A stretch of DNA of 64,000 nucleotides from Vicinamibacteria bacterium (GCA_963422395.1 OY729431.1:2688001-2752000); one strand, 5' to 3'; counted from the stretch's first letter, positions 7,349 through 60,257 are shown. Numbers and translations: made by a program. The notes: generated from the sequence alone by a model not told the origin.

Positions 7349-7352
7349 GGAA

Positions 7353-7565: not shown

Positions 7566-7613
7566 GATGATCTGCACTCCCGGCGGCTGCGGATCGCGAC
7601 GGCGCAGGGACGC

Positions 7614-7686: not shown

Positions 7687-7779
7687 TCGCATCCCCGATA
7701 TCCGGGAACCGCGGCGGTTCCGCTTCGAAACCGATCATCGTCTGACGCCTCCTGCCTGCCGCAAGGAAGCCTCGCGTGC

Positions 7780-7944
7780 TCACCGGGTCTCCCGATGGAG
7801 CACATGTCCGCGACAGAAGCGACAGAACTTGCGCAATTCCATACGGTCCGGGTGGGTAGAACGGTTCTTCGTCGTCGAGTAGGTGCGCCGTTTACATTCG
7901 GTGCACGCCAGCGTGACGATCTGCCGCTTCTTCTCGCGCGCCAT
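7780..7944 (-). CDS. rpmG: 50S ribosomal protein L33 (zinc-binding CxxC form), absent from the ORF track
   Basis: Manual translation [54 protein letters not shown]. Confidence 0.96.
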
Positions 7945-8078
7945 GGGGCTCGGGTTCCCGGCGGTAGTGCCTTAGTCTAAAAATCTCTCCCGGAGCATCA
8001 GGCTCGGCGGTGACTCCTCGCCGCAACCGAGCCGATGCCATCCGTATTCGTGTCGCCTGCCGCGATCCGCTCGCGCGG

Positions 8079-9926: not shown

Positions 9927-9999
9927 AGCTGGCGAAGGGACTTGAACCCTTGACCGGCTGATTACAAATCAGCTGCTCTGCCTCCTGAGCTACGCCAGC
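9927..9999 (-). tRNA. tRNA-Thr (TGT); 3' CCA not encoded
   Basis: GCTGGCGTAGCTCAG...GCTGATTTGTAATCAGC...AAGGGTTCAAGTCCCTT CGCCAGCT. Completes the canonical Thr-Tyr-Gly-Thr-tuf cluster. Confidence 0.95.
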
Positions 10000-10018
10000 C
10001 TGCACCGGCGAACAGACG

Positions 10019-10048
10019 ATTATAGAGATTCTGCGCCAGTGGTGTCAA
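10019..10048 (-). promoter_or_regulatory. Sigma70 promoter of the tRNA-tuf operon
   Basis: Perfect TTGACA-N18-TATAAT on the minus strand, about 20 nt upstream of tRNA-Thr. Confidence 0.88.
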
Positions 10049-13572: not shown

Positions 13573-13576
13573 CGGA

Positions 13577-15046: not shown

Positions 15047-15182
15047 TGCCCGATCCTTTGCCTACTTTCCTCGGCCGATCCCGAACCCCTGGACCGCCGC
15101 CGCCCTTATCACCCTGCCCGGCGTCGAACGCAGCGGCGGGGAGGGCCGGACACCGCGAAGAAATTCGGGCCAGTCTTCCGGG

Positions 15183-15752
15183 TCAGTCTTCCGGGGCCGG
15201 CGGGCCGGGGACGGAACCGCCATCCTCCCCTGCTGCCGCCGTTTCGGCAGCGGCAGGCGCCTCGCTCGGGATCGCCGAAGCAGCGTCCAGCCCGAGAGAG
15301 GCCGCCGCGGCCGGCTCCACCTGGATCTGAAGATTCACCCCGACTTCCGGGTGGAGCCGCACCAGCACCGACGAATCGCCGGTCTTCTTGATCGGGCTGC
15401 CGAGAACGATGCGGTTCCGGGCGATGGTGAACCCGGCTTCCGCCAATTCGCGGCCGATGTCCTGGATCGAAACCGAGCCGTACAACTCGTCGGAATCGGT
15501 CTTGACCCGACGTTCGAAGCGGAGAGTCCGTCCCTCGAGCGCCGCCGCGAGGGCACGCGCCGCTTCCACTTCTTCGACCCTCCGGACGGCCCAGGACTTT
15601 CGGGCCTGGGCGACCTCCCGACGGTTGTCCTCCGTGATCGGCACGGCGATGCGGCGAGGCAGAAGATAGTTCCTGGCATAACCGGCGCGGACCTCCACCT
15701 CGTCCCCGGGTTCTCCGAGGGAGTCGACCGGTCGTCGCAGCAGCAGGCGCAT
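15183..15752 (-). CDS. rplI: 50S ribosomal protein L9
   Basis: VRAGYARNYLLP, LYGSVS, PIKKTG, LHPEV. Start ATG 15752. Confidence 0.96.
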   Translation of the reverse strand: MRLLLRRPVDSLGEPGDEVEVRAGYARNYLLPRRIAVPITEDNRREVAQARKSWAVRRVEEVEAARALAAALEGRTLRFERRVKTDSDELYGSVSIQDIGRELAEAGFTIARNRIVLGSPIKKTGDSSVLVRLHPEVGVNLQIQVEPAAAASLGLDAASAIPSEAPAAAETAAAGEDGGSVPGPPAPED

Positions 15753-15762
15753 CGATCCCTCC

Positions 15763-16008
15763 TCACTCGTAGGGCAGCAGAGCCATCTGGCGGGCACGTT
15801 TGATGGCGACCCGGATCTGCCGCTGCGTACGGGCATTCGCACGGGAGACCCGTCGCGGCGCGATCTTCCCCCGATCGCCGAGGAACTCTCGAAGGAAATC
15901 CACATCCTTCCAGTCCACCCGACCCACGCCGCTCAGAACGGGGTTGACTCTCACCCGACGTGGGCCGGAGCGCCGACGCCGACGCGGGGCTGCAGGTTTT
16001 TCGCTCAT
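15763..16008 (-). CDS. rpsR: 30S ribosomal protein S18
   Basis: [34 protein letters not shown]. Start ATG 16008. Confidence 0.96.
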
Positions 16009-45431: not shown

Positions 45432-45556
45432 TCCGGTGCGGGCGGGAAGCCCATGGGCAAGCCCGGGTCGTCGAGAGGGAAAAATCGGATTCGGCACGCG
45501 AGGCGCGGAATATACTGTCCCCGGCGCGCGGTTTTTTCTCTGGGTTCTCGTGGAAA

Positions 45557-46774
45557 ATGGGCCGGGTGATCTCGTCCGAAGCCGCAAGACGCACCCCGCT
45601 TGGAAAGCCGGCCGGAAAGCCCGTTGGAATGTTGGTCGGAATATCGGTCGGGGCGTTCGCCGTTGCGCTCTGCGGGTCGTCTGCCGCTGCCGCCCAGACC
45701 GGGAATTTCCTCCCCGAAGACTTTTTCACCGCGGATCGGGCCGTCGAGGCCATGGCGGGGAAGCAGGTCGTCTTCGAGACCAGCCACGGAACCTTCGTCG
45801 TCGAGGTCTTCGCCGAAAAAGCCCCGAACCACTCCGCATTCTTCCTGCTGCAAGCCGAGCAGGGGAACTACGACGGCACCGCGTTCCACCGGCTGATCGA
45901 GCGCGGAATCGTGCAGGGCGGGGATCCCCTCTCCAAGGATCCGGACGCATCCGGCCGTTACGGGACCGGAGGACTCGGACGGCTCGCGCGGGAGCCGAAC
46001 GACCTTTCGCATGTCCGGGGCACGGTGTCGGCAGTGCAGGTTCCCGGACAGCCGGACAGCGCCGGTTCGCAGTTCTTCATCGTGATCACCGACCAGCCGG
46101 CCCTCGATGGGGCGTACACGGTGTTCGCCCGCGTCGTCGAGGGGATCCACGAGGTCACCGCGATCTCGGAACTGCCTGCCGACGCCGAGGGCAGGCCGAC
46201 CGAGCGCATCGAGATCGCGCGCGCCGCGGTCCGCGACCGTCCTCCGGAATCGCCCCCTCCGTTCTCGACGGAGATCGACGCCGAACTCGCGGCGTTTCGG
46301 GTCGTTCTGGAAACCCGATTCGGAGAAATCGGGATCGAACTGCTCCCGGAGACGGCGCCGAACCATGCGCGGAACTTCCTGCGGCTTGCGGCGCTCGGCG
46401 CCTACGACGGGACGGCGTTCCACCGGGTGGTCCCCGGCTTCATGGTCCAGACCGGCTGGATGGACACCCGCGAGCCGCCGGCGCCGGAGAGCATCGAAAA
46501 ACACATCACGAACTTGCAGCCCGAGTTCAGCGATATCGCCCATGAGCCCGGGATCGTCTCCATGGCCCGGCTAGAAGCGCCCGACAGCGCGATGACCAGC
46601 TTTTTCATCATGACCGGGCGGGCTCCGGCGCTCGACGGGGAATACACCGTGTTCGGCCGCGTGGTCTTCGGGTATGAAGCCGTGGAGGCCGTCGAGGCGC
46701 TGCCGGCTGGCGGCGACGAGGCGCCCCTCGAGCGCATCGAGATCCTTCGGGCGCGGGTCGAGCCCTTCGAATGA
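45557..46774 (+). CDS. Exported double-domain cyclophilin-type PPIase
   Basis: Two copies of YDGTAFHR..G..VQ.G, SQFFI/SFFI, LDG.YTVF. Confidence 0.92.
   Translation: MGRVISSEAARRTPLGKPAGKPVGMLVGISVGAFAVALCGSSAAAAQTGNFLPEDFFTADRAVEAMAGKQVVFETSHGTFVVEVFAEKAPNHSAFFLLQAEQGNYDGTAFHRLIERGIVQGGDPLSKDPDASGRYGTGGLGRLAREPNDLSHVRGTVSAVQVPGQPDSAGSQFFIVITDQPALDGAYTVFARVVEGIHEVTAISELPADAEGRPTERIEIARAAVRDRPPESPPPFSTEIDAELAAFRVVLETRFGEIGIELLPETAPNHARNFLRLAALGAYDGTAFHRVVPGFMVQTGWMDTREPPAPESIEKHITNLQPEFSDIAHEPGIVSMARLEAPDSAMTSFFIMTGRAPALDGEYTVFGRVVFGYEAVEAVEALPAGGDEAPLERIEILRARVEPFE
45600..45659 (+). repeat. Degenerate 12-bp tandem repeat in the cyclophilin N-terminus
   Basis: ttggaaagccgg / ccggaaagcccg / ttggaatgttgg / tcggaatatcgg / tcggggcgttcg. 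Confidence 0.5.
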
Positions 46775-47781
46775 GTTCCGCCGGCGTCCTCGAGGTGGCG
46801 ATCATCGGGGCCGGACCGTCTGGCCTCGCCACCGCGATCGAGTGCCAGCGGCAGGGGCTCCGCTACGCGGTGATCGAGAAAGGAGGCCTGGTGGACACGA
46901 TCCGACGGTTTCCGGTTCACATGGTGTTCTTCACCACTCCGGAACTGCTCGAGATCGGAGGGGTGCCGCTCGTCTCCCACCGGGAGAAACCGTCGCGCTA
47001 CGAGGCACTCACCTACTACCGGAAAGTCGCGCAGCACTTCGACCTGCGGCCGCACCTCTTCACCCGGGTCTCCCGAGTGGAGCTCCCCGCCGGGAACGGC
47101 CGGGACGGCTTCACGCTACATCTGCAGAGCGAGCGGCAGGGAATTCCCGATCCGGGACCGGTCCAGGCGCGGAACCTCGTGGTGGCGATGGGCTATTTCG
47201 AAAACCCGAACCGACTCGGAGTGCCCGGCGAGGATCTCGACAAGGTCTCCCATCGCTTCTCCGAGACCCATCCCTACTTCGGATCGCGCGTCGCGGTCGT
47301 CGGCGGAGGCAACTCGGCCGCCGAGACCGCGCTCGAGCTCTACCGGGCGGGCATCGAAGTCACCCTCGTCCACCGAGGGGAGACGCTGTCCCCGCATCTC
47401 AAGTACTGGGTGCGTCCGGACATCGAGAACCGCATCGAACGGCGCGAGATCGCCTCGCACCTCGGATCGGCAGTAGAAGCGATCCATCCCGATTCGCTGA
47501 CCGTGCGGGACCGCCGGGGAGAGGTGCGCGAGATCCCGAACGACTTCGTGCTCCCGCTCATCGGATACCGGCCCGACTACGGCTTTCTGGAGTCGCTCGG
47601 AATCCGGAGCGAGGGACCCGACCGGGTGCCGGTCACCGACCCGGAGACCCTTTCCACCGAAATTCCCGGCCTCTACCTGGCCGGCGGAGTGGTCGCCGGC
47701 CTCCGCACCAACCGCATCTTCATCGAGAACGGCCGTTTCCACGGAGAGGCGATCGTTCGGCACATCTGCCAGGAAAGGTGA
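46771..47781 (+). CDS. ypdA: YpdA-family putative bacillithiol disulfide reductase
   Basis: IIGAGPSG, FFTTPELLEIG, EALTYYR, GGGNSA, YWVRPDIENRI, IFIENGRFH. Confidence 0.88.
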   Translation: MSSAGVLEVAIIGAGPSGLATAIECQRQGLRYAVIEKGGLVDTIRRFPVHMVFFTTPELLEIGGVPLVSHREKPSRYEALTYYRKVAQHFDLRPHLFTRVSRVELPAGNGRDGFTLHLQSERQGIPDPGPVQARNLVVAMGYFENPNRLGVPGEDLDKVSHRFSETHPYFGSRVAVVGGGNSAAETALELYRAGIEVTLVHRGETLSPHLKYWVRPDIENRIERREIASHLGSAVEAIHPDSLTVRDRRGEVREIPNDFVLPLIGYRPDYGFLESLGIRSEGPDRVPVTDPETLSTEIPGLYLAGGVVAGLRTNRIFIENGRFHGEAIVRHICQER

Positions 47782-49520
47782 TCCCCTCTCCGGAACGCCT
47801 CATCACCCGACGGCGCTTCGGAGTGCTGGCGGCCGGCGCCCTCAGCGGGGGGCTGAGCGGAGCCTGCCGGGACGGTGCTCCGAAGGGCCGAGAGAGCCTC
47901 GACCTGCGGATCCGAAACGCTCGCATCGTGGACGGTTCGGGAGCTCCTGCCCGCATCGGCGACCTCGGGATCCGAAAGGGCCTTTTCGCGTCCGCCGAGG
48001 GCCCGGCGCTCCGCGAACTCGACGGATCCGGGCTGGCGGCGGCGCCGGGATTCGTCGACATCCACTCTCACGGAGACCTGGTGCTGGCGAGCGATCCGGG
48101 CCGCCGCGCGGAGCTGCTCGCCGGACGACTCGCGCAGGGCATCACCAGCGAGGTCATCGGGAACTGCGGGCTCGGAGCAGCGCCGCAGTTCGGCGAGGCC
48201 GACGGCCTCGCTCCCGCAGTGCACGCCTGGATGACCCCAACGGGCGTTTCCTGGCAGTGGGGCTCGCTCGGGGAGTACTTCGCCGTCCTGGAGACCGCGG
48301 GGTTGCCCTCGAATGTCGCGGCGCTCGTTCCCCACGGGCTGCTGCGGCTGGGCGCGATGGGACTCCGCCCCGGGGCGCCGGATCACGGGGAACGGGCCGC
48401 CATGGCCCGCGAACTCGAACGGAGTCTCGACGAGGGTGCGTTCGGCCTTTCCTGCGGCCTCATCTACCCGCCCGGCATGTTCAGCACCACCGACGAGCTG
48501 CTCGGGCTGGCGCGCGGACTGCGCGCCGCGGACGGGGTGTTCACCGCCCACCTCCGCGGATCGAGCGAAACCCTGCTCCCCGCGGTCGAGGAACTGTTGG
48601 AAATCGGCCGGGCTGCCGACATCCGCGTCCACCACAGTCACGCCGAAGCCGTCGGCCGGCGCCACTGGGAGCAGCTGGAAGCCTTCCTCGATCTGGAGCG
48701 CACCGCGCGCGAGCAGGGAGTGCGCGTTTCGGCGGACATGTTCCCCTACCCAGTGGCGGCGACGATGATGTACGCCATCTATCCGCCGTGGTCGCTGGAA
48801 GGCGGCCCGGAGCAGCTGCTCGTCCGCCTCCGAGACCCGGCGGAGCGGGCCCGGATCCGGGAGGACCTGGAGACCCACACCCCGCGCTGGCCGCCCTGGG
48901 AGCCCGGCGGGTGGCCGCACAACCTCGTCTCCGCGGTGGGCTGGGAGCGGATCCTGGTCGCGAGCGTCGGAAGTTCCGACCGCCGGGAGGTCGTGGGTCT
49001 TTCGCTCGCCGCCCTCGGAGAACGGGCGGGCACGCACCCGTTCGACGCCGTCTCGGACCTCATGCTCGCAGAGGACGGAGCGGTGGGTCAGTTCGTGCTG
49101 GACATCAGCGGCGAACCGGGTTTGCGGCAACTCGCGGCAGATCCCGAAGTCGCCTTCGTCACCGACGCGAACGACTACGGGAAGGGATCATGCCACCCCG
49201 CGGCGTACGGGGCGTTCCCGCGCGTCCTGCGCCAGTATGTCCAGGAAGAGGGACTGCTTTCGCTGGAAGAATCCATCCGCCGCATGACCTCGCTCCCTGC
49301 CGCCGTCGCCGGCCTCGAAGACCGGGGGCGGATCGCACCCGGCCTTCCCGCCGATCTCGTGCTCTTCGACCCGGAAAGAATCTCCGACCACGCCACCCTC
49401 GAAGAGCCGCGCATGCGCGCGACCGGCATCCGCGCCGTCTTCGTGAACGGTCAGGCGGTCCTCCGGGACGGCCGCCTCACCGGCGCCCTCCCCGGCCGGG
49501 TCCTCCGCCGCTCCGCCTGA
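47778..49520 (+). CDS. N-acyl-D-amino-acid deacylase (amidohydrolase) with Tat/lipoprotein signal
   Basis: ITRRRFGV..LSGAC, PGFVDIHSH, GNCG, AHLRG, YGAFPRVL. GTG 47778 overlaps the ypdA stop. Confidence 0.88.
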   Translation: MIPSPERLITRRRFGVLAAGALSGGLSGACRDGAPKGRESLDLRIRNARIVDGSGAPARIGDLGIRKGLFASAEGPALRELDGSGLAAAPGFVDIHSHGDLVLASDPGRRAELLAGRLAQGITSEVIGNCGLGAAPQFGEADGLAPAVHAWMTPTGVSWQWGSLGEYFAVLETAGLPSNVAALVPHGLLRLGAMGLRPGAPDHGERAAMARELERSLDEGAFGLSCGLIYPPGMFSTTDELLGLARGLRAADGVFTAHLRGSSETLLPAVEELLEIGRAADIRVHHSHAEAVGRRHWEQLEAFLDLERTAREQGVRVSADMFPYPVAATMMYAIYPPWSLEGGPEQLLVRLRDPAERARIREDLETHTPRWPPWEPGGWPHNLVSAVGWERILVASVGSSDRREVVGLSLAALGERAGTHPFDAVSDLMLAEDGAVGQFVLDISGEPGLRQLAADPEVAFVTDANDYGKGSCHPAAYGAFPRVLRQYVQEEGLLSLEESIRRMTSLPAAVAGLEDRGRIAPGLPADLVLFDPERISDHATLEEPRMRATGIRAVFVNGQAVLRDGRLTGALPGRVLRRSA

Positions 49521-49532
49521 CCACTGCTCTCG

Positions 49533-49571
49533 ACCGCCGCAATCGAACGTTGCTTTCGACTGGGCGGCGGT
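49533..49571. terminator. Inverted repeat between convergent genes
   Basis: ACCGCCGC...GCGGCGGT with a long loop and no U-tract. Confidence 0.3.
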
Positions 49572-49604
49572 TCCGGCTTGCTGTTCACGTCCGGGGAAAC
49601 CCCG

Positions 49605-52600
49605 TCAGGCTTCGCGCTCCCCGACCAGCCTCGCCGCCACCGGGTCGATGCTCCACACATCACGCGACCGCACCAAGCCGAGGCGTTCCGCCCACGAAAG
49701 CCGCCGCACCACTTCCTCTCGGTCGATCCCGGCTTCGACTGCTTCCTCGACGACCTCATCCCGGCGCAGGCCGCCATAGGCGGCGAGGGGCCGCAGAACA
49801 GCGCGCATCGCCCAATCATCGAGACAGAGCTGGCGGTGGTGTTCCTCCAGCCGAGAACCGTCCGAGAGTTCGCTTTCGAGCGCTTCGAGGCCTGCCTCGG
49901 CACTGCCTTCGTTTTTCTTCATCAGCCAATGGAAGCGCAGGACATACCGCGGCCAACCTCCGGTCTTTTCCAGAATTTCGCCGCGCAGTCCCGCGGAATC
50001 CGAAATGCCGACATCCTCCATCCACTGCCGGAGGTACCCGTCGCGCCAGGGCTCCAGGAAGAGGAGATCCAACCGGTTGTCGGAGTCGAGAGCGGCGGGA
50101 TCGAGCGTCGAAGAGTAGAGCGAGCAACCCTCCGCGAGGAACAGCACCCGAACCTGCCGGTGCTCCTTGCTCAGGCGCCCCAGATAGCTCTGCGCCGCCC
50201 GGATCCATTCCTGCCATTCCCGAGCCCACGAGGCCTCCGCCGGCACTGCATAGACCCCCACGCCGTCCTGCTGGCGGTCCACGGCCTCTCGCAGTTCGGC
50301 CAGGAAGGAGCCGCGGTCGAGGGTGCCCTCGATCGGGACGATCTCGTTTTTCCCCCGCCCGCGAAACCCGTTGAGTACATCGATCACCTGGTGGAATCCG
50401 GCGGCGGGCACTCCGGAAAGCAGCACGACGCCGTTCTTCTCGGCGAACAGCTGTCCTTCCTGCTGGAACGACAGCGGGCTTCGTGAAGGGTCTTCCGGTT
50501 CGTCCGGTTTGCGCCGGGCACGGAAAGTCGCTCGCTCGAACTCCCGCGGCGGCTCCCGCTCTTCGAGCAGCTTCTCCTCGATCTGCTCCTTCGTCCCCAT
50601 CAGGAGCAGCACATTCGGGTTCCTCAGCGAATATCCCTCCGGTTCGGCCTCACCCTCCGATTCGACCTTCCGGAGCACGCCGAGACCCACCATCTCGTCG
50701 AGCAGGGATTCGAATCGGCGGGGGCTGGACTCGGCGAACCCTTTCGGCCACCACTCGTTCGCTTCCCGGTAGATCTCAGTGCGGGAAACCCCGTGGACCA
50801 GCGCCTCCTCGTGCAGGGTGCATCGGTACGCGATCGTGTACGCAATGACTTCGTACCTCTTGTCGAGGTCGAGGGTCAGGTGGAACCTCCCGCGGATGAA
50901 GTCGCGCATGCCGCCCGTCCGGTAGGTCTCATCCAGAATCTCCTCGTCCACGACATGGAGCGGCGGTTCGCTGCGGGGCTTCGAGCGCATCGTGCCGATC
51001 AGCTCGGCGCCGTAGGCCTGGATCAGCCCAGGGTAGTAGTTCGTCTGCGCGAGGATGCGGGTGACGAGATCGGGGGATCGGAACCGGTAACCGACGGCGA
51101 GCAGCGGGCGGGTCAGCAGCTCCTGCGCCGCCCGCATGCCTCCGTTCCGGAGGAGGGGCCCCACCTGGATGGGTTTCCCGAACTGGCCGAGCGGATGGTT
51201 CGCGAGTTCGACCGTCCGCAGCACATTGTGCAGGCCGGCGAAAACGATCTTGATGGAACGCCTGGTGTCGTCCATCAATTTCTTCATCAGGATGGACTCC
51301 CGATATCCGGTCGCCGCCACTCCCGCCTGCTGTTCGCGCGAGTCCACTTCCAGGAACCGGTCCGCCTCGTCCAGCAGCAGCAGGAGCGTCCGTTCGGTAT
51401 CGGGGGCGAAATGCCGGATCAGCGCGTCCAGGAATGCCTGGATCCGGCCTCTTCCCCCCGCGGTGGGCGGCTCCCGGACATCTTCCGGGATCGCGCCCCC
51501 GTCGCGAAGCGTCCGCCAGATCACCGGCCAGATGTAGGCGGTGTCCCGGTGCGCACCGATGCCGTACGCCTTCAAGTCCACGAAGAAGACATGGCGGCCC
51601 TGCTGCGGGCGGTGTGCATCTGCCTCGACGGCGCGCAGGATCGCCGTCTTCCCGAGCTGCCGGCCGCCGTAGAGGAAGCACGGGCCGTAGGGGTCGATTA
51701 CGGCTTCCCTCTCCCCGACCCGTCCGTAGAACATCTCGGGAGGGACGAGGCCTCCCGTCGTCACATAGGGCTGTACATGAGTGAACGGCAGGGCGCAGTG
51801 GAAGAGGACGGGCAGACGGGATCCCCTTTCGCCGCAGAGGAACACGAGGAGCGTTTCGTCGAGAATCAGGAGCGTCGCGGCGCATTCGCGCGAGGCAACG
51901 GCCAGCTCGGTGCGCTGTCTCGCACTCAACCGGCCCAGGTAGAGGACGATCGGCGGCGGGCCGCCTCGCCCTCTCGCATCCGCTATCAGGTCTGCCACCG
52001 GCGGCCGGTTCCAGCGGCAGATCACCCGGTAGCGCCCATTGGCGGCGGAGCCGCAGGCCGGAACCGGGCTCTGTTCCTTTCCTTCGAGGGGAGCCGTGTA
52101 AAGCATCGCCGCATCCTTCTCGAAGGATCGAACCTCCGCCCCGCGGAAGCCGATCTCCGAGAAGAGCTGCTCGATCTGCCGCGCCCCGTCCCGTCCCAGA
52201 CTGCTCCGATCCTTGAGTCCGAGCCAGGCCTCGAGCATCCGCGCCGCCGATTGCCGGCGCTCGCCGGTGAGCTTCCCGAAGCCTTTCTTCCCCTGCCGGA
52301 TCGATTCGAGGACGGCGCGAGGGTGCGATGCTTCGAGCTCCTCCGCGATCGCCTTCGCACCGACGGGAAAGAACTCGTCGAAGACGACGCGCCCCCGGGC
52401 TTCTGGCACCGCGAAGCGCGGATTGTCGCGCACTTGTTGGACCAGCTCGTTCGCGGTCACGATGTCATGCTGCTCGATGGCGCGCCCGATCGCCAGCGTC
52501 TGGGGGCTGTCGGGCGGCAGGTCGAGTTCGTCGAAATCACGCTTCGCCTGTTCGAGGTGCCGTCCCGTGATCCGGTCCAGTTCGGACTCGATGCTTTCCA

Positions 52601-55600
52601 ACCGATCGCGAATCTCACCGAATCGCCAAAATTCGGAGTCCGACAACCGGCGGCCGATCTCGGCGAGGTCCGGTTCGTGCTTCTCCCGCTCGTCGGCGGA
52701 CACGCTGCCCAGCATGAGGCCCTGCTCGACCCGATCCGCGAGTAGTTCGCGCTTCTTCCGAAGCGCGTCCCTCTTTCGCGCGCGCATCTCTCCGAGCTCC
52801 CGGCGAAGCTCGCCGCTCTCGTCGTCTCCGACCCAGTCGAGGATCCGATGCGCCATCTCCAGGTTGCCCTGGTCGAGGTGATGGCGAATCGCTTCGAACT
52901 CGTTCAGGGAGGGCTCGCCGAGCAACGATTCGAGCACTTCCCGAGGCTCACCGACCGGTCCGCCGCCGCTGTCCAAGAGAATTCGGGAACGGAAGAAGCC
53001 GGATGCCAGCAACTCTTCCGGATCGGTTTCCGTCTTCGGACCCGCAACCGGACCCCCCGGATCGAGGAGTGCCCGGAGGCGCTCGATGGCGTGGGCTGCC
53101 ATTCCGGCGCCGGCCGACGGCCAGCCGAGGCCCCCTTCGCAGGTCGCCCCGAGCTCGCGCAGTGCCGCTGCGGCGGAGTCCTCCAGATCGCGGCGCAATT
53201 CCGAGAACACCCTCACGCGGTAATCGGGGCGGCCGACGGAAGGCGCTGCGAGATCCAGATGCCTCTGGACCAGGTCGGCGGCTTTCCCGGCTTCTTCGAC
53301 GAGCTTCTCGAACGCCCGCGTGTGGATGCGCTCCGCGGATCGGCGGGGCCCCCGGATCTCTCGATCCGTTCGGTGGATCAGCTCCTTCAGCTTCCTGGGA
53401 TCCCTCCACGCGGCGACGGCGGTGCGGACCGCCGCTTCGTCGCTTTCTTCGCTCCGCCCGGTTGCGGCCTGCGACAGGATGCGTTCGATGATGCGCCCGA
53501 TCGCACCTTCGGGATCGAGCCAGCGCATCCGAACCGCCGAGGCAGGCTGAAAGAGAAGGGTCCGGCGGGGAGCGTTCGTGCGCCATTCCCGGATTTCCTG
53601 GGTGCACTGCTCGCGCGCGGCGGCCCGTTCCGTATCGGATCGCATGGCCCTCAGCAGGGCTGGATCCGTCCGTGCGTGCTGCACCTTCGCCGCATGCGCG
53701 GCGATGCGCTGCGAGAGTGAATGCAGCTCGGAGAACCGACGGGTATGCGGGAGGTTGGCCAGGATCGCAATCGCCCCGGTGTCGGGGGCGAAGAGCGCCG
53801 GGGGCAGCGAGGCGGCGAACGCCGCTGCTGCGTAGAAGGAGCGCTCCGCGTCAGGCCACTCCGGATCGTGCCGAGGAAAACTTCGGAAGAGCTCGGAGAG
53901 GCGCGACGCGAGCGCCTCGGACCCGCCCTCGATCAGCAGCCGATCGGCGAGCGCCGCCGCCTCGAGCAGGCGGGCGCGGTGCTCTCCTCGACTGGGCGCC
54001 GCGCTCGCGAGCAAGCGGACCGCCTGGAACGCGAAGGGGAGGCGCGGCGGCTTTTCGAGCAGCGCGGCGCAGATCTGCTCCTCCGCCCGGGAGGGCGATG
54101 GATCGGGAAGGGAATCTGTCGGCTCCGGCGAATCTTGCGACTCCGGAGGCTCTGGAAGCTCCTCGGGAGGAGAAGGGGAAACCGTTCGAGCGGATGCCGG
54201 TTGCACATCCTCGCGATCCCGGGCGCCGTCCAACCGACCATCCAACCGGTCGTCGGTCTCGGACGGTGGGGATTCCGGTAGGGGTTGCGCCGAGGTTTCG
54301 CCGGCCGTATCCCGCTCCGGCTCTCGCGGGGCGTCTTCTCGAAGTTCCTCACCACCGCTGCTTTCGTTCGCTGCGGCCTCCCCGGGCTCTCCACCGGACT
54401 CCCCGCCGGCATCTCGGTCGGCATCTCGGTCGGCATCTCGGTCGACTGGGATATCCCCATTCGGCTCGGAGCCGCGCTCGTCACTGTCTCCCGAGGGGGA
54501 TGGCTCACCACCGCCCGACGCAGTTCCACTGGTCCGCGGGGGGGAAGGAGAATCCGGGGACGGGGGCGGTTCCTCGGCGGCATCGAAAGCCTCTCCGAGC
54601 GGGGAAAGCGCCCCGAGGAAGGCGTATTGCACAGTGCGGAGTCTCGCGAGGCAAGCACGCTCCTCCGCCTGGAGTGCCTCGAGGGAGGCGTCCCATGCCG
54701 GCAACGCCAGGAAACCGTCCGGGCGTTCCGCCCGCTTCGCCGCGATCCGCTGCCCTGAACCCTCGTACTCTTTCGCCGCGCGATGGACCTGTTCCCGCGC
54801 TTCGAGCACGGCGGGGAAGAATCGAGCCCGCTCCGCCTCCAGTTGGGCGAGAGCCAGGGACCCGGCGCGAGCGCTCCAGCGGGTCTCCAGCCGCTGACGG
54901 ATGTCCGCGTTCAGCCAGGCGAAGCTCCCATCCGCCTGGAGCTCGTCCAGAGTGCGCCGAACCACCGACAAAAGCCCTTCTAAAGCCGCAGCAGAGAGTT
55001 CGGCAGAGAGTTCGGCCTGGACCGCGGGTGCGGCCTTCCGCAGCTCATCGACGGTCTCGGTGATTTCGTCGAGGATTTCGTCGAGACCGGCCGGGTCGGG
55101 AGGAGGGCCGGCGGCAGCCTCCCCGAGCTCCGCCAGCGCCCGGCAGAGGGCGGTCCACCGCTCGACGGCGCCCGGTTCTTCTTCGCCGGCATCTTCTCCG
55201 TAGGACTCTTCCTCTCCCTCGGCTGTCGGTTCGGCGGCTCCCGCCGCAGCTCGGTCGTTCGGCAGGAGCCCGCGGAACTGGTCCCGGAGATCGGGAGCGA
55301 TCCGGACGGCTTCGGCGAAGACTCCCGGATCGTTCCGCAGGGTGGCGACCGCGAAGGTTCGCAGCACCGAGCGCTCGCGGGCCGCCTCGTCGAGCGAATC
55401 CCAGCGGGCGAGGGATTCCCGCGTCCCGGACCAGGCCCTTTCGGCGATCCGTTGCGTCTTCTCCGTCTTCGCCCGTTCGCCCGAGGACTCCGAAGCCCGG
55501 TTCGGGGAGGCCCCGGGTTCCGGCTCCAAGAAGTCGGCGAGCACCTCTGCTTCGAACGACGGAACTGCGCCCGGACCGTGCAGCAAACGGTTCTCCCACA

Positions 55601-55877
55601 CCGCTCGTCGGAACCCTGGATCCGCGTAGCGCCACTGGACCAGCCGGCGGTCGAGGGCACCGGGTGGCGGCGACGGCTCGCGGGCCTTGAATTCCGCCTC
55701 GATCCGGCTTCGCGCCTCCCGCGGAATGCGGCTCACGACGCGCAGTCGGGCCTGCCGGTTCAAGCCGAGGATTCGGTTGAGAAGGTCGGGGTCCTCACCC
55801 AACAGGCGGGGCAGGCCCCGAGGCAAATCGGGCATCTTCTCGTCCACCGCACGGATGGTACCGGCGTATGGTGACAA
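49605..55877 (-). CDS. Giant P-loop NTPase (STAND-like) of unknown function
   Basis: QPY..PPEMFYGR, Walker A GGRQLGKT, Walker B LLLLDEAD; 2090-codon open frame. Start may be ATG 55835. Confidence 0.85.
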   Translation of the reverse strand: MSPYAGTIRAVDEKMPDLPRGLPRLLGEDPDLLNRILGLNRQARLRVVSRIPREARSRIEAEFKAREPSPPPGALDRRLVQWRYADPGFRRAVWENRLLHGPGAVPSFEAEVLADFLEPEPGASPNRASESSGERAKTEKTQRIAERAWSGTRESLARWDSLDEAARERSVLRTFAVATLRNDPGVFAEAVRIAPDLRDQFRGLLPNDRAAAGAAEPTAEGEEESYGEDAGEEEPGAVERWTALCRALAELGEAAAGPPPDPAGLDEILDEITETVDELRKAAPAVQAELSAELSAAALEGLLSVVRRTLDELQADGSFAWLNADIRQRLETRWSARAGSLALAQLEAERARFFPAVLEAREQVHRAAKEYEGSGQRIAAKRAERPDGFLALPAWDASLEALQAEERACLARLRTVQYAFLGALSPLGEAFDAAEEPPPSPDSPSPPRTSGTASGGGEPSPSGDSDERGSEPNGDIPVDRDADRDADRDAGGESGGEPGEAAANESSGGEELREDAPREPERDTAGETSAQPLPESPPSETDDRLDGRLDGARDREDVQPASARTVSPSPPEELPEPPESQDSPEPTDSLPDPSPSRAEEQICAALLEKPPRLPFAFQAVRLLASAAPSRGEHRARLLEAAALADRLLIEGGSEALASRLSELFRSFPRHDPEWPDAERSFYAAAAFAASLPPALFAPDTGAIAILANLPHTRRFSELHSLSQRIAAHAAKVQHARTDPALLRAMRSDTERAAAREQCTQEIREWRTNAPRRTLLFQPASAVRMRWLDPEGAIGRIIERILSQAATGRSEESDEAAVRTAVAAWRDPRKLKELIHRTDREIRGPRRSAERIHTRAFEKLVEEAGKAADLVQRHLDLAAPSVGRPDYRVRVFSELRRDLEDSAAAALRELGATCEGGLGWPSAGAGMAAHAIERLRALLDPGGPVAGPKTETDPEELLASGFFRSRILLDSGGGPVGEPREVLESLLGEPSLNEFEAIRHHLDQGNLEMAHRILDWVGDDESGELRRELGEMRARKRDALRKKRELLADRVEQGLMLGSVSADEREKHEPDLAEIGRRLSDSEFWRFGEIRDRLESIESELDRITGRHLEQAKRDFDELDLPPDSPQTLAIGRAIEQHDIVTANELVQQVRDNPRFAVPEARGRVVFDEFFPVGAKAIAEELEASHPRAVLESIRQGKKGFGKLTGERRQSAARMLEAWLGLKDRSSLGRDGARQIEQLFSEIGFRGAEVRSFEKDAAMLYTAPLEGKEQSPVPACGSAANGRYRVICRWNRPPVADLIADARGRGGPPPIVLYLGRLSARQRTELAVASRECAATLLILDETLLVFLCGERGSRLPVLFHCALPFTHVQPYVTTGGLVPPEMFYGRVGEREAVIDPYGPCFLYGGRQLGKTAILRAVEADAHRPQQGRHVFFVDLKAYGIGAHRDTAYIWPVIWRTLRDGGAIPEDVREPPTAGGRGRIQAFLDALIRHFAPDTERTLLLLLDEADRFLEVDSREQQAGVAATGYRESILMKKLMDDTRRSIKIVFAGLHNVLRTVELANHPLGQFGKPIQVGPLLRNGGMRAAQELLTRPLLAVGYRFRSPDLVTRILAQTNYYPGLIQAYGAELIGTMRSKPRSEPPLHVVDEEILDETYRTGGMRDFIRGRFHLTLDLDKRYEVIAYTIAYRCTLHEEALVHGVSRTEIYREANEWWPKGFAESSPRRFESLLDEMVGLGVLRKVESEGEAEPEGYSLRNPNVLLLMGTKEQIEEKLLEEREPPREFERATFRARRKPDEPEDPSRSPLSFQQEGQLFAEKNGVVLLSGVPAAGFHQVIDVLNGFRGRGKNEIVPIEGTLDRGSFLAELREAVDRQQDGVGVYAVPAEASWAREWQEWIRAAQSYLGRLSKEHRQVRVLFLAEGCSLYSSTLDPAALDSDNRLDLLFLEPWRDGYLRQWMEDVGISDSAGLRGEILEKTGGWPRYVLRFHWLMKKNEGSAEAGLEALESELSDGSRLEEHHRQLCLDDWAMRAVLRPLAAYGGLRRDEVVEEAVEAGIDREEVVRRLSWAERLGLVRSRDVWSIDPVAARLVGEREA
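54407..54444. repeat. 12-bp tandem repeat (CGGCATCTCGGT)x3
   Basis: Encodes DRDA repeats in the acidic linker of the giant ORF. Confidence 0.85.
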
Positions 55878-55906
55878 AATCCGGCACGACCGCGGCTATC
55901 CGCAGA

Positions 55907-58348
55907 TCATCCAGGATCGGTCGGGGGGCCGGCCTCGTCCGCCTTCCCGTCCAGATGCCGGTCGAAGAAGGCCGTCATCCGCCGGTAGCTGTCACGGCGG
56001 GTGGGGATTTCGTCCCAGCCGTGGTCTTCGACGGGATAGACGACGAGGTCGAAGTCCTTCTGTTTCTCGATGAGGATCTGGGCGAGACGGAAGGAGTCCT
56101 GGATCTGGACATTGCCATCCACCAGACCGTGCTGGATCTGGAGGGCGTCTCGGAGCCCGTCTGCGTAATAGACCGGACTCGAGATCCGGTAGGCCTCTTC
56201 ATCGTCGAGCTGGCTGCCGTTCAGGATCCGGCTGGTGTATCCCTGGTTGTAGTGGGCCCAGTCGGTAACCGGGTAGAGCGCGACCCCGGCGGCGTAACGG
56301 CCGGGGTGCCTGAAGAGCGACATGAGGGTGAAGAAGCCGCCGTACGAACCTCCGTACACCCCGACTCGCTCGCGGGCGACCCCGTGATCCGAGACCAGCA
56401 GGTCGAGGAGAGGCAGGGCGCTGTCGATGTCGGAGACTCCCATCTGCCGGTAGGCGTAGGTGCGGTTCCGGTGGCCGTACCCCGAACTTCCCCGGTAATC
56501 CACGGAAGCCGCAGCGTAGCCGCGCTGGATCAGATAGTTCGCATAGACGATGCTGCCGAGGCGCGCCCAGCCCTTGACCACTGCCTGCGCGCATTCGCCG
56601 CAGCCGTGCGCATAGACCACTGCGGGGATTTCCCCGGGAGTCCTCCCCGAGGGCGGATCCCAGATCCGGGCCCAAGCGGTGTTGCCGTCGGGCAGGTCGT
56701 ATTCGACGATCTCGCTCTTCGCCCAGGCGGTCCGGTAGAAAGCGTCGGTGCCGCTCTTCGTGATCCTCACCGGCTCGGAGCCCGATGCTGTGTCCATCAG
56801 GAAGAGATCGCCGAATTCGGTCAGCGACTGCCGGACGACCGCGACCCGGCCGCCGTCCGGGGAAACCGCCCACGAATGCATCCCCTCGCCCCAGGTGATC
56901 CGTTCGAGCTCGCCGCCGCGCACCGGCAGCCGGTAGAGGTGCTCTTCTCCGGGATGCTCGCGGCTGGTGGTGACGAGGAAGGAGTCCCCGCCGGGGGCGA
57001 GTTCGGCGCGGCGCACCTCGAAGGCACCTTCGGTCGAGGCCGCGACCTCGCCGTCGAGGTTCGCGAGCAGCAGCATGGCAAAGCCGCTGGCGGTGGACCC
57101 GAACGCGAACGCCTGGCTGTCGGGGAGCCATTCGACGAAGCCCGGCGACCAGCGGCCGATCACCAGCGGACCGCCGATCCAGGCTTCCTCGCGCTGGTGA
57201 TCGAGGTGGCGGAGGGTGCCGGTTTCCAGGTCGAGCAGGGAGATCCAGCGCTGCTTGTGGTCCATGGAGAGCACCTGGACCACCCCGTGTTCGCCGTCCG
57301 GACTCCACACCGGGCCGTGCATCACGGTGTCTTCGTCCACCCCATCCTCGACCCAGCGGATCTCGATGTCCTCGGGACGCACCGAGGGGTCCACCGCCAC
57401 GATCCCCATCCTCCAGGAGGGAAGCGCCTCCCCCACCTTCGGGCGGGCCGACTCGTCCGTCGCCTGCCCGCTTTCATTCACGAACTCCATGAAATGAGTG
57501 CGGTTCGGCTCCTCCGGCCCCTTCCTGGCCCGAAAGACGACGAAACGGCCGTCGGGGGAGAGACGGAGGTCCACGGCGCGCTCTCCCTTCGGCATCGGAA
57601 TCGCCTGCGGCAGCGAGGTCCGGCGCGCCCGGCGCAGATCGGCGAGCCGCTCTTCGTGCTCTTTCCGCTCACGCACCACGCCCACCAGTTCGTTCTGCTG
57701 CGCCTCGAGCCATGCATCCTGTTCGCTCGGGTCTTCCTCGGCGGCGGTGACGACCGCGGCCTGCCGGAGAAGCCCGGCCCCGATGTCGTATTCCCAGAGA
57801 TCTCCGTTTTCCGGAGAGTTCGCGGAAAGCCCCTGGGTGGCGAAGAGAACGGCACTGCCGTCGGGGCGCAGGCGCAGGGAGCCGATCCCGCCGGCGCCCG
57901 AATAGACAGGCCGTGAACCCTCTCCGCGGGTCCAAACGAAGAGCGTCCCCTCCCGGCTCCATGCGGAAGTGCCGCCAGCCAGGGAGCGGACCCGATCGGC
58001 GCCGGGCACGAGGCGGATCTCGGCTTCGGTCAGCTCGCGGAGGCCCAGCCCCTCCCGGTCCACCGCGAACCACGGATCATCCTCCGGAAGCTGGCCGGGC
58101 GCCGGATCCTCGCGCCAACGGAAGTAGAGCACCTCGCCGGAGTCAGCCCAGCGCAGCTCCCGCGGGGGAAGTCCGAAGACCCGGTTCCCGCCCGCCAGAT
58201 GATCCAGGGTGAGTCGAAAGTCGGGATCAGCAGCCGCCGAGGTCAGCTCGGACTGGGAGCGGAGCTGGCCGAACACCGGCGCCGCCCCCAGGAAGAACAG
58301 CAGCGCTGCCCCCAGCAGAGCTGCATCGGTCTGGTGGAGTCGCCGCAT
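55907..58348 (-). CDS. S9 family prolyl oligopeptidase / DPP IV-like
   Basis: Signal peptide, beta-propeller, GGSYGG, HGLVDGNV, EDHG. Confidence 0.93.
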   Translation of the reverse strand: MRRLHQTDAALLGAALLFFLGAAPVFGQLRSQSELTSAAADPDFRLTLDHLAGGNRVFGLPPRELRWADSGEVLYFRWREDPAPGQLPEDDPWFAVDREGLGLRELTEAEIRLVPGADRVRSLAGGTSAWSREGTLFVWTRGEGSRPVYSGAGGIGSLRLRPDGSAVLFATQGLSANSPENGDLWEYDIGAGLLRQAAVVTAAEEDPSEQDAWLEAQQNELVGVVRERKEHEERLADLRRARRTSLPQAIPMPKGERAVDLRLSPDGRFVVFRARKGPEEPNRTHFMEFVNESGQATDESARPKVGEALPSWRMGIVAVDPSVRPEDIEIRWVEDGVDEDTVMHGPVWSPDGEHGVVQVLSMDHKQRWISLLDLETGTLRHLDHQREEAWIGGPLVIGRWSPGFVEWLPDSQAFAFGSTASGFAMLLLANLDGEVAASTEGAFEVRRAELAPGGDSFLVTTSREHPGEEHLYRLPVRGGELERITWGEGMHSWAVSPDGGRVAVVRQSLTEFGDLFLMDTASGSEPVRITKSGTDAFYRTAWAKSEIVEYDLPDGNTAWARIWDPPSGRTPGEIPAVVYAHGCGECAQAVVKGWARLGSIVYANYLIQRGYAAASVDYRGSSGYGHRNRTYAYRQMGVSDIDSALPLLDLLVSDHGVARERVGVYGGSYGGFFTLMSLFRHPGRYAAGVALYPVTDWAHYNQGYTSRILNGSQLDDEEAYRISSPVYYADGLRDALQIQHGLVDGNVQIQDSFRLAQILIEKQKDFDLVVYPVEDHGWDEIPTRRDSYRRMTAFFDRHLDGKADEAGPPTDPG

Positions 58349-58366: not shown

Positions 58367-59689
58367 TCAGCGGATCAGCAGGATCCGATCGTTCGCTGGA
58401 TAGAGCCACTCCACCCCCCGCTCGGTGACGATGGCGTCGTCCTCCAATGGAATGCGCACTTTCGCCCCCCCGAATTCCTCCGCCTTCGTATAGGCGAACA
58501 GCTCGATGGAGAACATGTTGGAGGGCACGATCTCGTATTCGAGGCGGGTCGGATTGAACCAGGCGATCGAAGGGCCGATGCCGTGGCCGAGGTTGCCTAC
58601 CGAGTGGCAGCCGATCGCGATGTCGGTGGTCTCCTCCATAGTGGGCTGGTTGAATTCGATCATCTGGAATCCGGCCTCGGTGAGCGCTTCGCCGAGCCGT
58701 TCGAGCATCGCTCCTGCCGTCGGCCCCGGCCTTATGGTGCGCCGGATCACTTCGCGTGCGGCGCGGCCCCGGTCGAAGGCGTTCTGGATCCCCGGTGGAG
58801 CGGCGACCTCCCCCTCCCGCAGCACATAGGCGATCCGCTTCATGTCGGTATAGAAGTTCAGATAGCCCACCCCCCAATCGATCATCAGCAGATCGCCGCG
58901 CTGGATGATCCGTTCGTTCGAGGTGGCCTCGATACCGCCGGGGCCGGTGATGTAGATGGACGGCATCCCGAACGAAGTGTCGAGTCCGTTCTCCAGCAGT
59001 TGCTGTTCGATCCACCACGCTGCATCTTCGAGCGCGGTCACTCCGGGAGTGATGACTTCGTTGGAGAAGGCGCGCTCGGCGATCTTCCTCGACCATTCGC
59101 CGGCTTCACCGAAAGCGACGATCTCGCTCGCCACCCGGCGGGAACGAAAATCGGAAATCAATTTTTCCGCAGAAACCAGCCGGTCCCGGTAGGGCTCGCC
59201 CAGGGTCTCCCGCAAGTGGAGCCAACTCGTATGGGAGAGCCCGTCCGCGGCGCCGATGCTGCGCGACATGTTGACGCCGATCGCCTGCGGGTCGCGTTCC
59301 CGCACGAATTCGGCGAGATCGACATTACCGGACACCTCGTCGTACACCCCGCACCGTTCCAGTTTGTATCCCGAGACGCCGATGGCCACCCGCTCGATCC
59401 GGTCTCCGCCGCGGTCCGTGAAGATGTAGTAACCGGTGCTGCCGATGTAGCCCCGGCCGAGGTCCTCCCAGAGCGGATCGCGGAGCCCCTCCTTCATGAC
59501 CGTGATCCACATGTCCACACCGTTCCCGCGCATCGCCTCGGGCAGTACGAGATCGAATTTGTCGGCGCGGATCTGACACATGCGCTCCCAGCGAATGCGG
59601 GCCTCGGTCTTCGCCCCGGCAGCCGCCGGGAGGAGAGTCAGAGCGAGAAGGGCGCCCGCAGCCGAACGGCGATGGATGACGAAACTCAT
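58367..59689 (-). CDS. M24 family metallopeptidase, exported
   Basis: IDWG..YTDMKR, GHGIG, FSIE, LEDD. Start ATG 59689 with signal peptide. Confidence 0.85.
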   Translation of the reverse strand: MSFVIHRRSAAGALLALTLLPAAAGAKTEARIRWERMCQIRADKFDLVLPEAMRGNGVDMWITVMKEGLRDPLWEDLGRGYIGSTGYYIFTDRGGDRIERVAIGVSGYKLERCGVYDEVSGNVDLAEFVRERDPQAIGVNMSRSIGAADGLSHTSWLHLRETLGEPYRDRLVSAEKLISDFRSRRVASEIVAFGEAGEWSRKIAERAFSNEVITPGVTALEDAAWWIEQQLLENGLDTSFGMPSIYITGPGGIEATSNERIIQRGDLLMIDWGVGYLNFYTDMKRIAYVLREGEVAAPPGIQNAFDRGRAAREVIRRTIRPGPTAGAMLERLGEALTEAGFQMIEFNQPTMEETTDIAIGCHSVGNLGHGIGPSIAWFNPTRLEYEIVPSNMFSIELFAYTKAEEFGGAKVRIPLEDDAIVTERGVEWLYPANDRILLIR

Positions 59690-59876
59690 GGCTTTCCTCC
59701 CGGAATCAGCAATCTGCAGGACGATGTCACGCATGCCCTCGTCGGCTCGGCACCGGTTCTCCGGGCGGGAACACCGGTGATCTCTCCACTCCCTCCAGAA
59801 AGGCGCGAATGATCCGTCCACCGCCGAGCGGCGGAGAATCTCGGTAGGGGATTCCGCAGAGATACCGTAGGGAGTC

Positions 59877-60257
59877 TCAGTCGCCTCCCGGCATGTCCGA
59901 GCGGTACGGGCTTCCTTCGTTTCCGGAAACCTCACCGGCGGTCGGTTTCTCGTCCGGAAGTTCCGAGTCCTGGTCGAGGGTTTCCGGTTCGGCGAACATC
60001 TCCTCGAAGGTCGCCCGCGCCAGCTCATTGGCCGCGCGCTGCTCCTCGGTCAGCTCCTCGCTGTCGTCGGAGAGGATTTCCGCCGCTTCCTTCGGGTCGT
60101 ACACCTCGATTTTGCCGGCCCGCAGCTCGGCAAGCGCGATCGCGGTCGATCGGCGGCAGCTGGTCTCGACCTTCGGCGCCGCACCGAGGATCAGTTGGCG
60201 CACCCTCTGGGCCACGGCATTCGCCTGCAGGAATTGGCTGGCATCCTCGATTTTCAC
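59877..60257 (-). CDS. rpoZ: RNA polymerase omega subunit with acidic C-terminal tail
   Basis: F....AVAQRVRQLILGAAP....IALAELRAGKI. Confidence 0.8.
   Translation of the reverse strand: MKIEDASQFLQANAVAQRVRQLILGAAPKVETSCRRSTAIALAELRAGKIEVYDPKEAAEILSDDSEELTEEQRAANELARATFEEMFAEPETLDQDSELPDEKPTAGEVSGNEGSPYRSDMPGGD

Follow-up and report, generated by a model that had tools for sequence, protein, structure and literature searches.

The stretch of DNA analysed here, which we call the window, comprises 64,000 nucleotides from a Vicinamibacteria bacterium (GCA_963422395.1 OY729431.1:2688001-2752000); positions are counted from its first letter. On the minus strand, positions 49605-55877 form a stop-free frame for a very large protein of 2090 amino acids (aa) when counted from a TTG. 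Translation more probably begins 14 codons past the TTG, at the ATG at 55835, which gives a protein of 2076 aa. We prefer this start because GGACGAG precedes this ATG, whereas no purine-rich stretch stands before the TTG at 55877. We put at roughly 0.6 the probability that the gene is a partner-less member of a large and unnamed family of giant STAND/ORC-like ATPases which are candidate components of anti-phage or conflict systems. The parts of this giant, with the basis of each assignment in brackets, are as follows.

49605-55877, minus strand: whole open reading frame, 2090 aa from the TTG, 2076 aa from the ATG at 55835
55278-55877, minus strand: N-terminal head, aa 1-200, with the motifs GLPR and GLNR (alignment, hhalign, Pfam on fused homologues)
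54558-55277, minus strand: second N-terminal module, aa 201-440, common to all family forms (hhalign)
54078-54557, minus strand: acidic Pro/Ser-rich linker, aa 441-600 (composition, tandem repeat)
52281-54077, minus strand: large conserved domain, aa 601-1199, candidate sensor or scaffold (colinear in 81 of 81 loci)
51774-52280, minus strand: restriction-endonuclease-like alpha/beta domain, aa 1200-1368 (AlphaFold2, VIA-align, alignment)
50523-51773, minus strand: active P-loop NTPase plus its helical and winged-helix domains, aa 1369-1785 (AlphaFold2, VIA-align)
51645-51668, minus strand: Walker A, GGRQLGKT, aa 1404-1411 (alignment of 40 relatives)
51360-51383, minus strand: Walker B, LLLLDEAD, aa 1499-1506 (alignment of 40 relatives)
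49608-50522, minus strand: C-terminal module, aa 1786-2090 (secondary-structure order in the AlphaFold2 model, Foldseek, hhalign)

The open reading frame (ORF) is evidently a real gene, beyond chance, because 302 homologues turned up at E ≤ 1e-3 in a word-indexed search and, across 40 aligned relatives, the residues of Walker A and B do not vary. The homologues, drawn from 7999 scored proteins, are mostly about 2000 aa long and cover 70-100% of the query. The 11 motifs quoted in a first-pass annotation made from the sequence alone are all present, each in single copy and in the order given there: YRVICRW at aa 1283, IVLYLGRL at 1310, LILDE at 1337, FYGR at 1383, GGRQLGKT at 1404, LLLLDEAD at 1499, TNYYPGLIQ at 1612, LLDEMVGLGVL at 1725, VLLSGVPAAG at 1818, TGGWP at 1972 and WAERLGLV at 2062.

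STAND proteins, as Leipe and colleagues reportedly set out in 2004, combine Walker A and B motifs with the NB-ARC-like tripartite core, in which a nucleotide-binding domain precedes a helical domain and a winged helix. Both motifs of the giant agree with the STAND patterns (Walker A GxxxxGK[ST], Walker B hhhhD[DE]), and their G, K, T, D and E stay unchanged throughout the 40 relatives: seven of the eight Walker A residues do not vary at all, L1408 is kept in at least 90%, and D1503 and E1504 of Walker B are invariant. An AlphaFold2 model of aa 1231-2090, computed from a 42-sequence alignment, has a mean predicted local distance difference test score (pLDDT) of 87.9. We compared this model with about 48,000 representatives of the PDB using VIA-align, a structural alignment that is independent of Foldseek. 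Closest to aa 1369-1775 are two Walker-type ATPases from archaea, 2qen with 329 of 350 residues aligned at Z 20.0 and 2fna at Z 18.9. Plant NLRs follow at Z 17.0 (317 residues aligned) and 16.2, then ORC2 (16.0), TnsC (15.1, 13.8 and 13.3), Cdc6/Orc1 (14.8), MuB (14.6), CED-4 (13.0), NLRC4 (11.8), BrxC (11.3), DnaA (11.1) and Apaf-1 (10.7). The tripartite core is thus present in the model, as it aligns with NLRs, CED-4 and Apaf-1. As to a separation from ORC/Cdc6-type AAA+ proteins, the two PF01637-type ATPases score highest and ORC2 is about equal to the NLRs. Because of these matches to 2qen, 2fna, NLRs, ORC2, TnsC and CED-4 we place aa 1369-1775, which as modelled consist of a P-loop, a helical and a winged-helix domain, on the boundary between STAND and ORC. 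The STAND-like NTPase with winged helix of the first-pass annotation is therefore borne out as a STAND/ORC-like arrangement.

The same annotation called the gene an orphan, and this is refuted. When 1.84 billion cluster representatives were scored with a profile of the C-terminal 860 residues, 6330 clusters passed E ≤ 1e-3, of which 4220 passed 1e-10 and 2585 passed 1e-30, so the family comprises at least 2585 clusters. With one genome per species, a relative is encoded in 463 of 492 candidate stretches. The best 80 of these come from Acidobacteriota, Arenicellales and other Gammaproteobacteria, Spirochaetia, Binatia, Latescibacterota, Gemmatimonadota, Nitrospirae, Betaproteobacteria and many filamentous cyanobacteria, and one lies on a Phormidium plasmid. 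The giants span about 1800-2450 aa. By tblastn, relatives occur in 25 plasmid records and, at E ≤ 1e-5, in none of 50,697 phage records.

The first pass could match the protein to no named system, and the family libraries agree. In Pfam there are only sub-threshold matches around Walker A (AAA_16 at 20 bits, cut-off 32.6; AAA_22 at 19.7 bits, cut-off 27; DnaA), no match to PF01637 and no fused effector domain; some homologues pass the AAA_22 cut-off and several have sub-threshold PF01637 matches. NCBIfam gives only a sub-threshold match to DnaA (E = 0.03; 13.4 bits, cut-off 343.9). PADLOC-DB v2.0.0, which dates from 2023, has 0 families matching the window protein at E ≤ 1, and for the homologues only SspC (7.6e-4) and an MzaA match that is limited to the sigma-70 part described below. 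Sequence searches of the PDB found nothing for the whole protein and marginal matches for the core profile (E ≥ 0.04).

It had also been proposed that the giant is a single-gene system. This is not typical of the family, in which most relatives have an adjacent effector gene, either HEPN-like or HKD-SNF2. In 35 of the 81 loci an ORF of about 370 aa (cluster 0) follows on the same strand, at a median of 10 nucleotides (nt) downstream of the giant. In 26 of the 81, all cyanobacterial, there is directly up- or downstream a protein of about 1100 aa with PLD(HKD), SNF2 and Helicase_C domains (cluster 1). These counts are lower bounds because many loci stop at contig edges. The smaller partner has no match above threshold in Pfam or PADLOC, and a search of the PDB by sequence gave nothing useful. 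Near its C-terminus the residues R343-N344-x-L346-x-H348 are invariant in 28 partners, in agreement with the HEPN pattern Rx4-6H. In 15 of the 28, Pfam finds PF18731 (HEPN_Swt1), with a best E of 8.4e-4 and all matches under the 27.5-bit cut-off. The partner's neighbour cluster in the ESM Atlas has the automatic name 'Swt1-like HEPN', which we take as a lead only. The larger partner matches the PADLOC candidate 'HKD+Snf2' at 1e-128 and also DrmD, and the giants beside it have a full sigma-70 as N-terminus. Other adjacent genes on the same strand encode metallo-beta-lactamase-fold proteins (loci L055 and L056), and the superfamily 1 (SF1) helicase adjoining the giant in L075 is the PADLOC candidate PDC-S68.

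Several of these loci are worth describing individually. Plasmid pSR118 of Salinibacter ruber (L092, 5908-12827) encodes a giant of 1927 aa and a partner of 377 aa with the motif RNRIAH (E = 1.7e-90 with the hidden Markov model, HMM, of the partner); a transposase and a 1721-aa DUF3320 protein adjoin the pair. In L003 (Arenicellales) two paralogous giants of 1923 and 2011 aa stand head to head, at 3130-8898 on the minus and 9935-15967 on the plus strand. Neither has a HEPN-like partner, and the second matches aa 1201-2090 of the window protein at E = 1e-78 only. L091, on an Azospirillum oryzae plasmid (744-10514), encodes a 3256-aa 'RNaseH domain-containing protein' with the nuclease-like fold and the NTPase core, 35% identical across query aa 27-532 and flanked by two more ATPase genes and a DUF6035 gene. 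Similar matches occur on Bradyrhizobium and Microvirga plasmids, and together they look like a separate, related family of giants. In L061 (1-7554, plus strand), from an unclassified metagenome-assembled genome, an ORF of 2518 aa with no Pfam or PADLOC match lies just upstream of the giant.

We aligned the 81 giants with MAFFT in its faster mode and computed a midpoint-rooted FastTree phylogeny of the core from 78 of the 81 rows; the other three fell short of 700 core residues. HEPN-like partners occur throughout this tree, and the sigma-fused group with HKD-SNF2 is nested in a HEPN-paired cyanobacterial group. The window's giant forms with L001 and L004 a partner-less clade which is nested among HEPN-paired clades. 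With the partner HMM, no HEPN-like partner was found among the 24,245 six-frame ORFs of the window's 2.9-Mb genome. The partner-less state of this acidobacterial lineage is, as judged from the tree, derived, the HEPN partner having been lost.

Vertical conservation apart from defence genes had been named as an observation that would speak against a role in conflict. This is not what we find. The gene is present in 10 of 61 related genomes, in 7 of 27 within the same family and in 3 of 16 in genus g2. In 35 non-redundant loci we compared 84 large flanking ORFs with PADLOC, taking from each locus the closest two or three that lie no more than 7 kb away and excluding the partners; 23 of them, in 16 loci, match at E ≤ 1e-8. 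The matches include a type III methyltransferase and restriction endonuclease (L004), BrxC (L005), Avs2 and DarG (L027), DruF and DruL (L059), PsyrT and PsyrA (L080), QatD (L056), PifA (L060) and several PDC candidates.

Ahead of the NTPase the first pass had seen a possibly inactive restriction-endonuclease fold, and alignment, model and VIA-align point to a probable fold of this kind. The AlphaFold2 model of aa 1200-1372 has a pLDDT of 92.9. The leading VIA-align rows are the FokI cleavage domain (Z 6.3), AF1548 (6.2), AspBHI (5.8), HindIII (5.6), NucC (5.4), SduA and MspJI (5.0 each), and N.BspD6I, Can2, Card1 and Cap4 are also listed. Most of the 50 rows are restriction or CRISPR/CBASS-type nucleases, about 30 of which we take to have the PD-(D/E)xK fold. 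Foldseek found nothing at E ≤ 1e-3. The invariant residues of aa 1200-1368 in 42 sequences are A, W, G, G, Y, D1340, R1354 and P, and D1340, the sole acid among them, is located past the last strand. No conserved catalytic D...(D/E)xK is seen in these 42 sequences, since the second and third strands of the core (model residues 57-61 and 83-89) have neither an acid nor a lysine in common. For this reason the domain is probably not a canonical nuclease.

Behind the winged helix comes an alpha/beta sandwich in which strands and helices alternate. After it the chain ends in a helical and winged-helix part, with a helical bundle and a beta hairpin. This C-terminal module has no Walker motifs. With Foldseek the whole model of aa 1231-2090 aligns over about 700 columns with tandem AAA+ proteins (Cdc48, ClpA, Yta7; E about 1e-7), but hhalign detects no sequence similarity between the module and the NTPase (probability 9%). 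The module is thus motif-less and P-loop-like and is not a proven duplicate of the NTPase. From the earlier proposal of a tandem STAND protein we keep the second alpha/beta module without P-loop motifs; the word tandem was an overstatement. Comparisons by hhalign also gave 1.3% for the nuclease-like domain against the NTPase and 0.2-0.4% for the HEPN-like partner against the NTPase, the C-terminal module, the nuclease-like domain, the winged helix and the large domain. At the level of sequence there is thus no sign of an internal duplication or of a module common to giant and partner. A predicted complex of winged helix and C-terminal module with the HEPN-like partner of L012 (score 0.01, mark 0.32) is no evidence either way.

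Towards the N-terminus the protein becomes variable. The core, aa 601-2090, is colinear in 81 of 81 loci, and the variation in length is confined to the N-terminal part, which is about 220, 440 or 800-870 aa long. The large domain (aa 601-1199) has no Pfam family matching more than two of 42 members, and its sole sequence match in the PDB is a designed helical repeat protein. The linker before it was described earlier as long, acidic, rich in Pro and Ser and with repeats, and its composition agrees: D and E make up 27.5%, P 16.9% and S 13.8%, there is no K at all, the net charge is -30, and a perfect 12-nt tandem repeat of 3.2 copies lies at 54407-54444. Its identity to five relatives is 8-30%.

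The head (aa 1-200) differs between the forms of the family, being missing in short forms and swapped for a full sigma-70 in cyanobacterial ones. The N-termini of short forms align by hhalign with window aa 201-440 (probability 94.9%, E = 4e-8) and with the region after sigma-70 in fused forms (100%). Between lineages the N-terminal head is exchangeable. By Pfam the cyanobacterial fusion is complete, with regions 1.2, 2, 3 and 4 at E values from 1e-10 to 1e-25. It is found in L016 (7484-14668), in L041 (7583-14923) and in 19 other cyanobacterial loci, all filamentous, and in the proteins P0096, P0097, P0100 and P0114, always adjoins an HKD-SNF2 gene, and its sigma-70 part matches MzaA of PADLOC at 1e-59. 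We also considered that the window's own head is a diverged sigma factor and found no sign of it; the lone hhalign match to sigma-70 forms (E = 0.0055) lies in the shared second module. Searching aa 1-440 in the ESM Atlas gave nothing usable.

In the window the giant stands among peptidase genes, as had been noticed earlier. The neighbours, all from Pfam, are the following.

42675-45587, minus strand: M16 peptidase
45557-46774, plus strand: cyclophilin
within 46674-49520, plus strand: amidohydrolase, convergent with the giant
55907-58348, minus strand: S9 peptidase, ending 29 nt before the TTG
58367-60028, minus strand: M24 peptidase

The 948-aa ORF at 46674-49520 (plus strand) probably represents two genes, as its residues 54-365 and 398-948 match relatives separately and spaced in tblastn; the amidohydrolase domains are in the last part only. 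The borders of the giant show no direct repeats and no tRNA. An exact 14-nt direct repeat, CGTCCGGGGAAACC, occurs at 49588-49601, intergenic and past the giant's stop, and at 56854-56867 inside the S9 gene; it is probably due to chance.

The gap between the S9 peptidase and amidohydrolase genes (49521-55906 in the window) is a small variable islet, as its contents differ between related genomes (comparison with L081, L082, L083 and L084): it can be empty, hold the giant alone, or hold the giant with further genes. In three genomes of the family it measures 335-727 nt and is empty, without a giant. In the window it holds only the giant, and in L004 and L084, which have the same order and were counted once, the giant shares it with Metallophos and AAA_27 genes before it and a type III restriction-modification (R-M) pair after it. 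The closest relatives, L001 and L004, are 48-55% identical to the window protein and have the same flanks (M24 and S9 77-92%, amidohydrolase 76% identical). Both carry the Metallophos and AAA_27 pair between the S9 peptidase and the giant, and in L004, the closest syntenic relative, the type III R-M pair comes right after the giant. The AAA_27 gene (YhaN/SbcC-like), immediately upstream of the giant in L001 and L004, is in the window's genome (G000) located at G000:C1:765311-768910, about 2 Mb from the giant (HMM E = 1e-289).

In four further genomes of the family a partner-less giant lies elsewhere, beside EF-G-like, RES-domain, or xanthine-dehydrogenase and ThiI genes. Altogether six other family genomes have partner-less copies of 2011-2072 aa, without internal stops and 32-50% identical to the window protein. 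The retention of intact partner-less copies over long times in at least seven family genomes (G000 and the six others) argues that the giant by itself is useful.

Among described systems the giant would work most like the Avs and NLR-type STAND sensors, yet it does not qualify as one of them. It shares with them the very large size, the P-loop NTPase with helical domain and winged helix, nuclease-type outputs, a patchy distribution and a location in defence islands. In the giant, however, the order is reversed, with the large domain and the exchangeable head N-terminal to the NTPase; an inactive nuclease-like fold directly precedes the NTPase and a motif-less alpha/beta module follows it. In Avs terms the NTPase stands too late, at aa 1369-1785 of 2090, and is followed by about 300 aa of alpha/beta module instead of a repeat sensor. 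The effector of the giant family is a separate gene and not a fused N-terminal domain, and no Avs model of PADLOC matches. Of the 589 STAND clades described by Lee et al. (2026; PMC12803255), 198 are associated with defence. No structures match the NTPase with its helical and winged-helix domains better than PABY2304 (2qen) and SSO1545 (2fna), members of PF01637 (ATPase_2). They are, however, stand-alone proteins of about 350 aa and of unknown function, whereas in the giant this module is about one fifth of 2090 aa.

According to PMC12839542, BREX has BrxC/PglY together with an inactive-STAND BrxB, and in some systems related to BREX the effector is an HKD-SNF2 helicase. An ORC/STAND-like ATPase, an inactive P-loop module and, in the cyanobacterial branch, an HKD plus Swi2/Snf2 effector are common to both. 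Unlike BREX, the giant has no conserved PglZ, PglX or BrxA/B genes next to it and matches neither a BrxC nor a DUF499 model; the Z of 11.3 for BrxC is well below the PF01637 and NLR matches, and L005 has a true BrxC as a gene of its own close by. With ORC/Cdc6, TnsC, MuB and DnaA the giant shares the general fold and weak sequence matches to DnaA and TniB; it differs in having no replication-origin or transposon context, in being far larger and in being accessory rather than universal.

We suggest that the giants could act in the following steps. The N-terminal parts and the large domain would sense a cue derived from the invader. Binding or hydrolysis of ATP by the NTPase could then switch the giant into an assembled state, by analogy with NLRs and Avs, and this state would license the HEPN or HKD-SNF2 enzyme encoded beside it. 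For the partner-less giant of the window the effector may be encoded at an unlinked site, or the giant may have an output of its own, for instance binding or sequestering a target via the inactive nuclease-like fold. This is the weakest part of the proposal, and we make it because the 6.3-kb frame and all residues invariant in the family are kept despite the loss of the HEPN partner. A more specific version would see an overlooked and very widespread class of NLR-like immune ATPases built in reverse, with an exchangeable N-terminal bait head and a large sensor, an inactive nuclease fold, and an active followed by an inactive P-loop; in filamentous cyanobacteria the sigma-70 bait would guard the transcription machinery, and the solo giant, long retained in the window's lineage without a nuclease partner, would carry a hidden effector activity. 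The bait could then sense anti-sigma factors or sigma-appropriating factors of phages and release the HKD-SNF2 nuclease. We regard this version as speculative and rather doubtful.

A number of observations weigh against a defence role. The window's giant lies 29 nt past the stop of the S9 gene amid housekeeping peptidases, neither a defence gene nor an effector, tRNA or integrase lies near it in the window, and its GC content (0.65-0.70) is the same as that of the flanks, so that composition gives no hint of recent transfer. The top fold matches of the NTPase (PF01637 ATPases, ORC/Cdc6, TnsC and MuB) are DNA-associated AAA+ proteins and not immune sensors. The Z scores of the nuclease-like domain are all at or below 6.3, thus less than 8 and lower than what the tool counts as trustworthy, and with the blank Foldseek search the fold assignment depends on the consistency of the list and on no single score. 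The HEPN assignment relies on a short motif and sub-threshold Pfam matches. The flanking ORFs of the 81 loci were called by length, with no gene finder, and clustered by all-against-all BLASTP. The 16 of 35 loci with defence matches stand without a matched control, and the methylase, kinase, RtcR and radical-SAM matches among them can be non-defence homologues. Repair-type neighbours (UvdE and the SbcCD-like pair of Metallophos and AAA_27) occur in some relatives. We found no description of the family in the full-text literature, though the clade tables of PMC12803255 may list it, and no experiment is known to tie any member to phage resistance.

Some of these points would fit a housekeeping or stress-related AAA+ ATPase associated with DNA or transcription, for example a loader, remodeller or repair scaffold which binds DNA or RNA polymerase and recruits helicases and nucleases for maintenance of its own genome. 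The matches to DNA-bound AAA+ proteins (ORC2 at 16.0, TnsC at 15.1, Cdc6/Orc1 at 14.8, MuB at 14.6, DnaA at 11.1), the fusion with a complete sigma-70 in cyanobacteria, neighbours such as Metallophos and AAA_27, UvdE, and SF1 and DEAD helicases, and the position of the window's giant close behind peptidase genes with no defence gene nearby can all be read in this way. Against it stand a presence that is patchy even inside one genus (3 of 16 in g2, 10 of 61 overall), the sites left empty in close relatives, differing insertion sites within one family, the copies on plasmids, and type III R-M, BrxC, Avs2, Druantia and PsyrTA as neighbours. Many relatives also have a HEPN-type partner, and such partners are typical of conflict systems rather than of repair. 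We therefore consider a housekeeping role unlikely.

A further question is whether the window copy still works. The partner is neither adjacent nor anywhere in the 2.9-Mb genome, its loss is derived on the tree and the giant was wholly lost from the same site in three relatives, so the gene might be an evolutionary leftover of nil or marginal function that persists by chance or by its linkage to the peptidase operon. But a stop-free frame of 6.3 kb in which every residue invariant in 40 relatives is kept, Walker A and B included, is hard to reconcile with decay, and the identity of only 32-50% to the intact partner-less copies of six other family genomes points to long retention under selection. 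A leftover seems to us improbable. The least plausible explanation, which we give very little weight, is that the giant serves a transposon or some other mobile element as its target-selecting ATPase, akin to TnsC, TniB and MuB. The gene is indeed an insertion/deletion polymorphism, TnsC (15.1, 13.8, 13.3) and MuB (14.6) are among the structural matches, and one cyanobacterial homologue has a weak Pfam match to TniB (1.1e-4). Yet no transposase, integrase or tRNA stands beside the giant in the window, direct repeats at its borders were not found, no transposase-like cluster occurs among the conserved neighbours of the 81 loci, and the indel is a single gene packed tightly between host genes. 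A conflict-related ATPase thus remains our preferred reading of the window's giant.

If this reading is right, the partner-less copies raise the question of what role a sensor has without its nuclease. A cultured organism, Salinibacter ruber, has the two-gene form on plasmid pSR118, so that ordinary cloning and phage-challenge tests would be feasible. The sigma-70 fusions offer the testable idea of a bacterial immune sensor that may watch the transcription machinery. Thousands of genes now labelled 'ATP-binding protein' or 'hypothetical' would then form one defence family, with an architecture that has not been described for Avs or NLR-like sensors and with swappable effectors, namely HEPN, HKD-SNF2, metallo-beta-lactamase-fold and SF1 helicase proteins.

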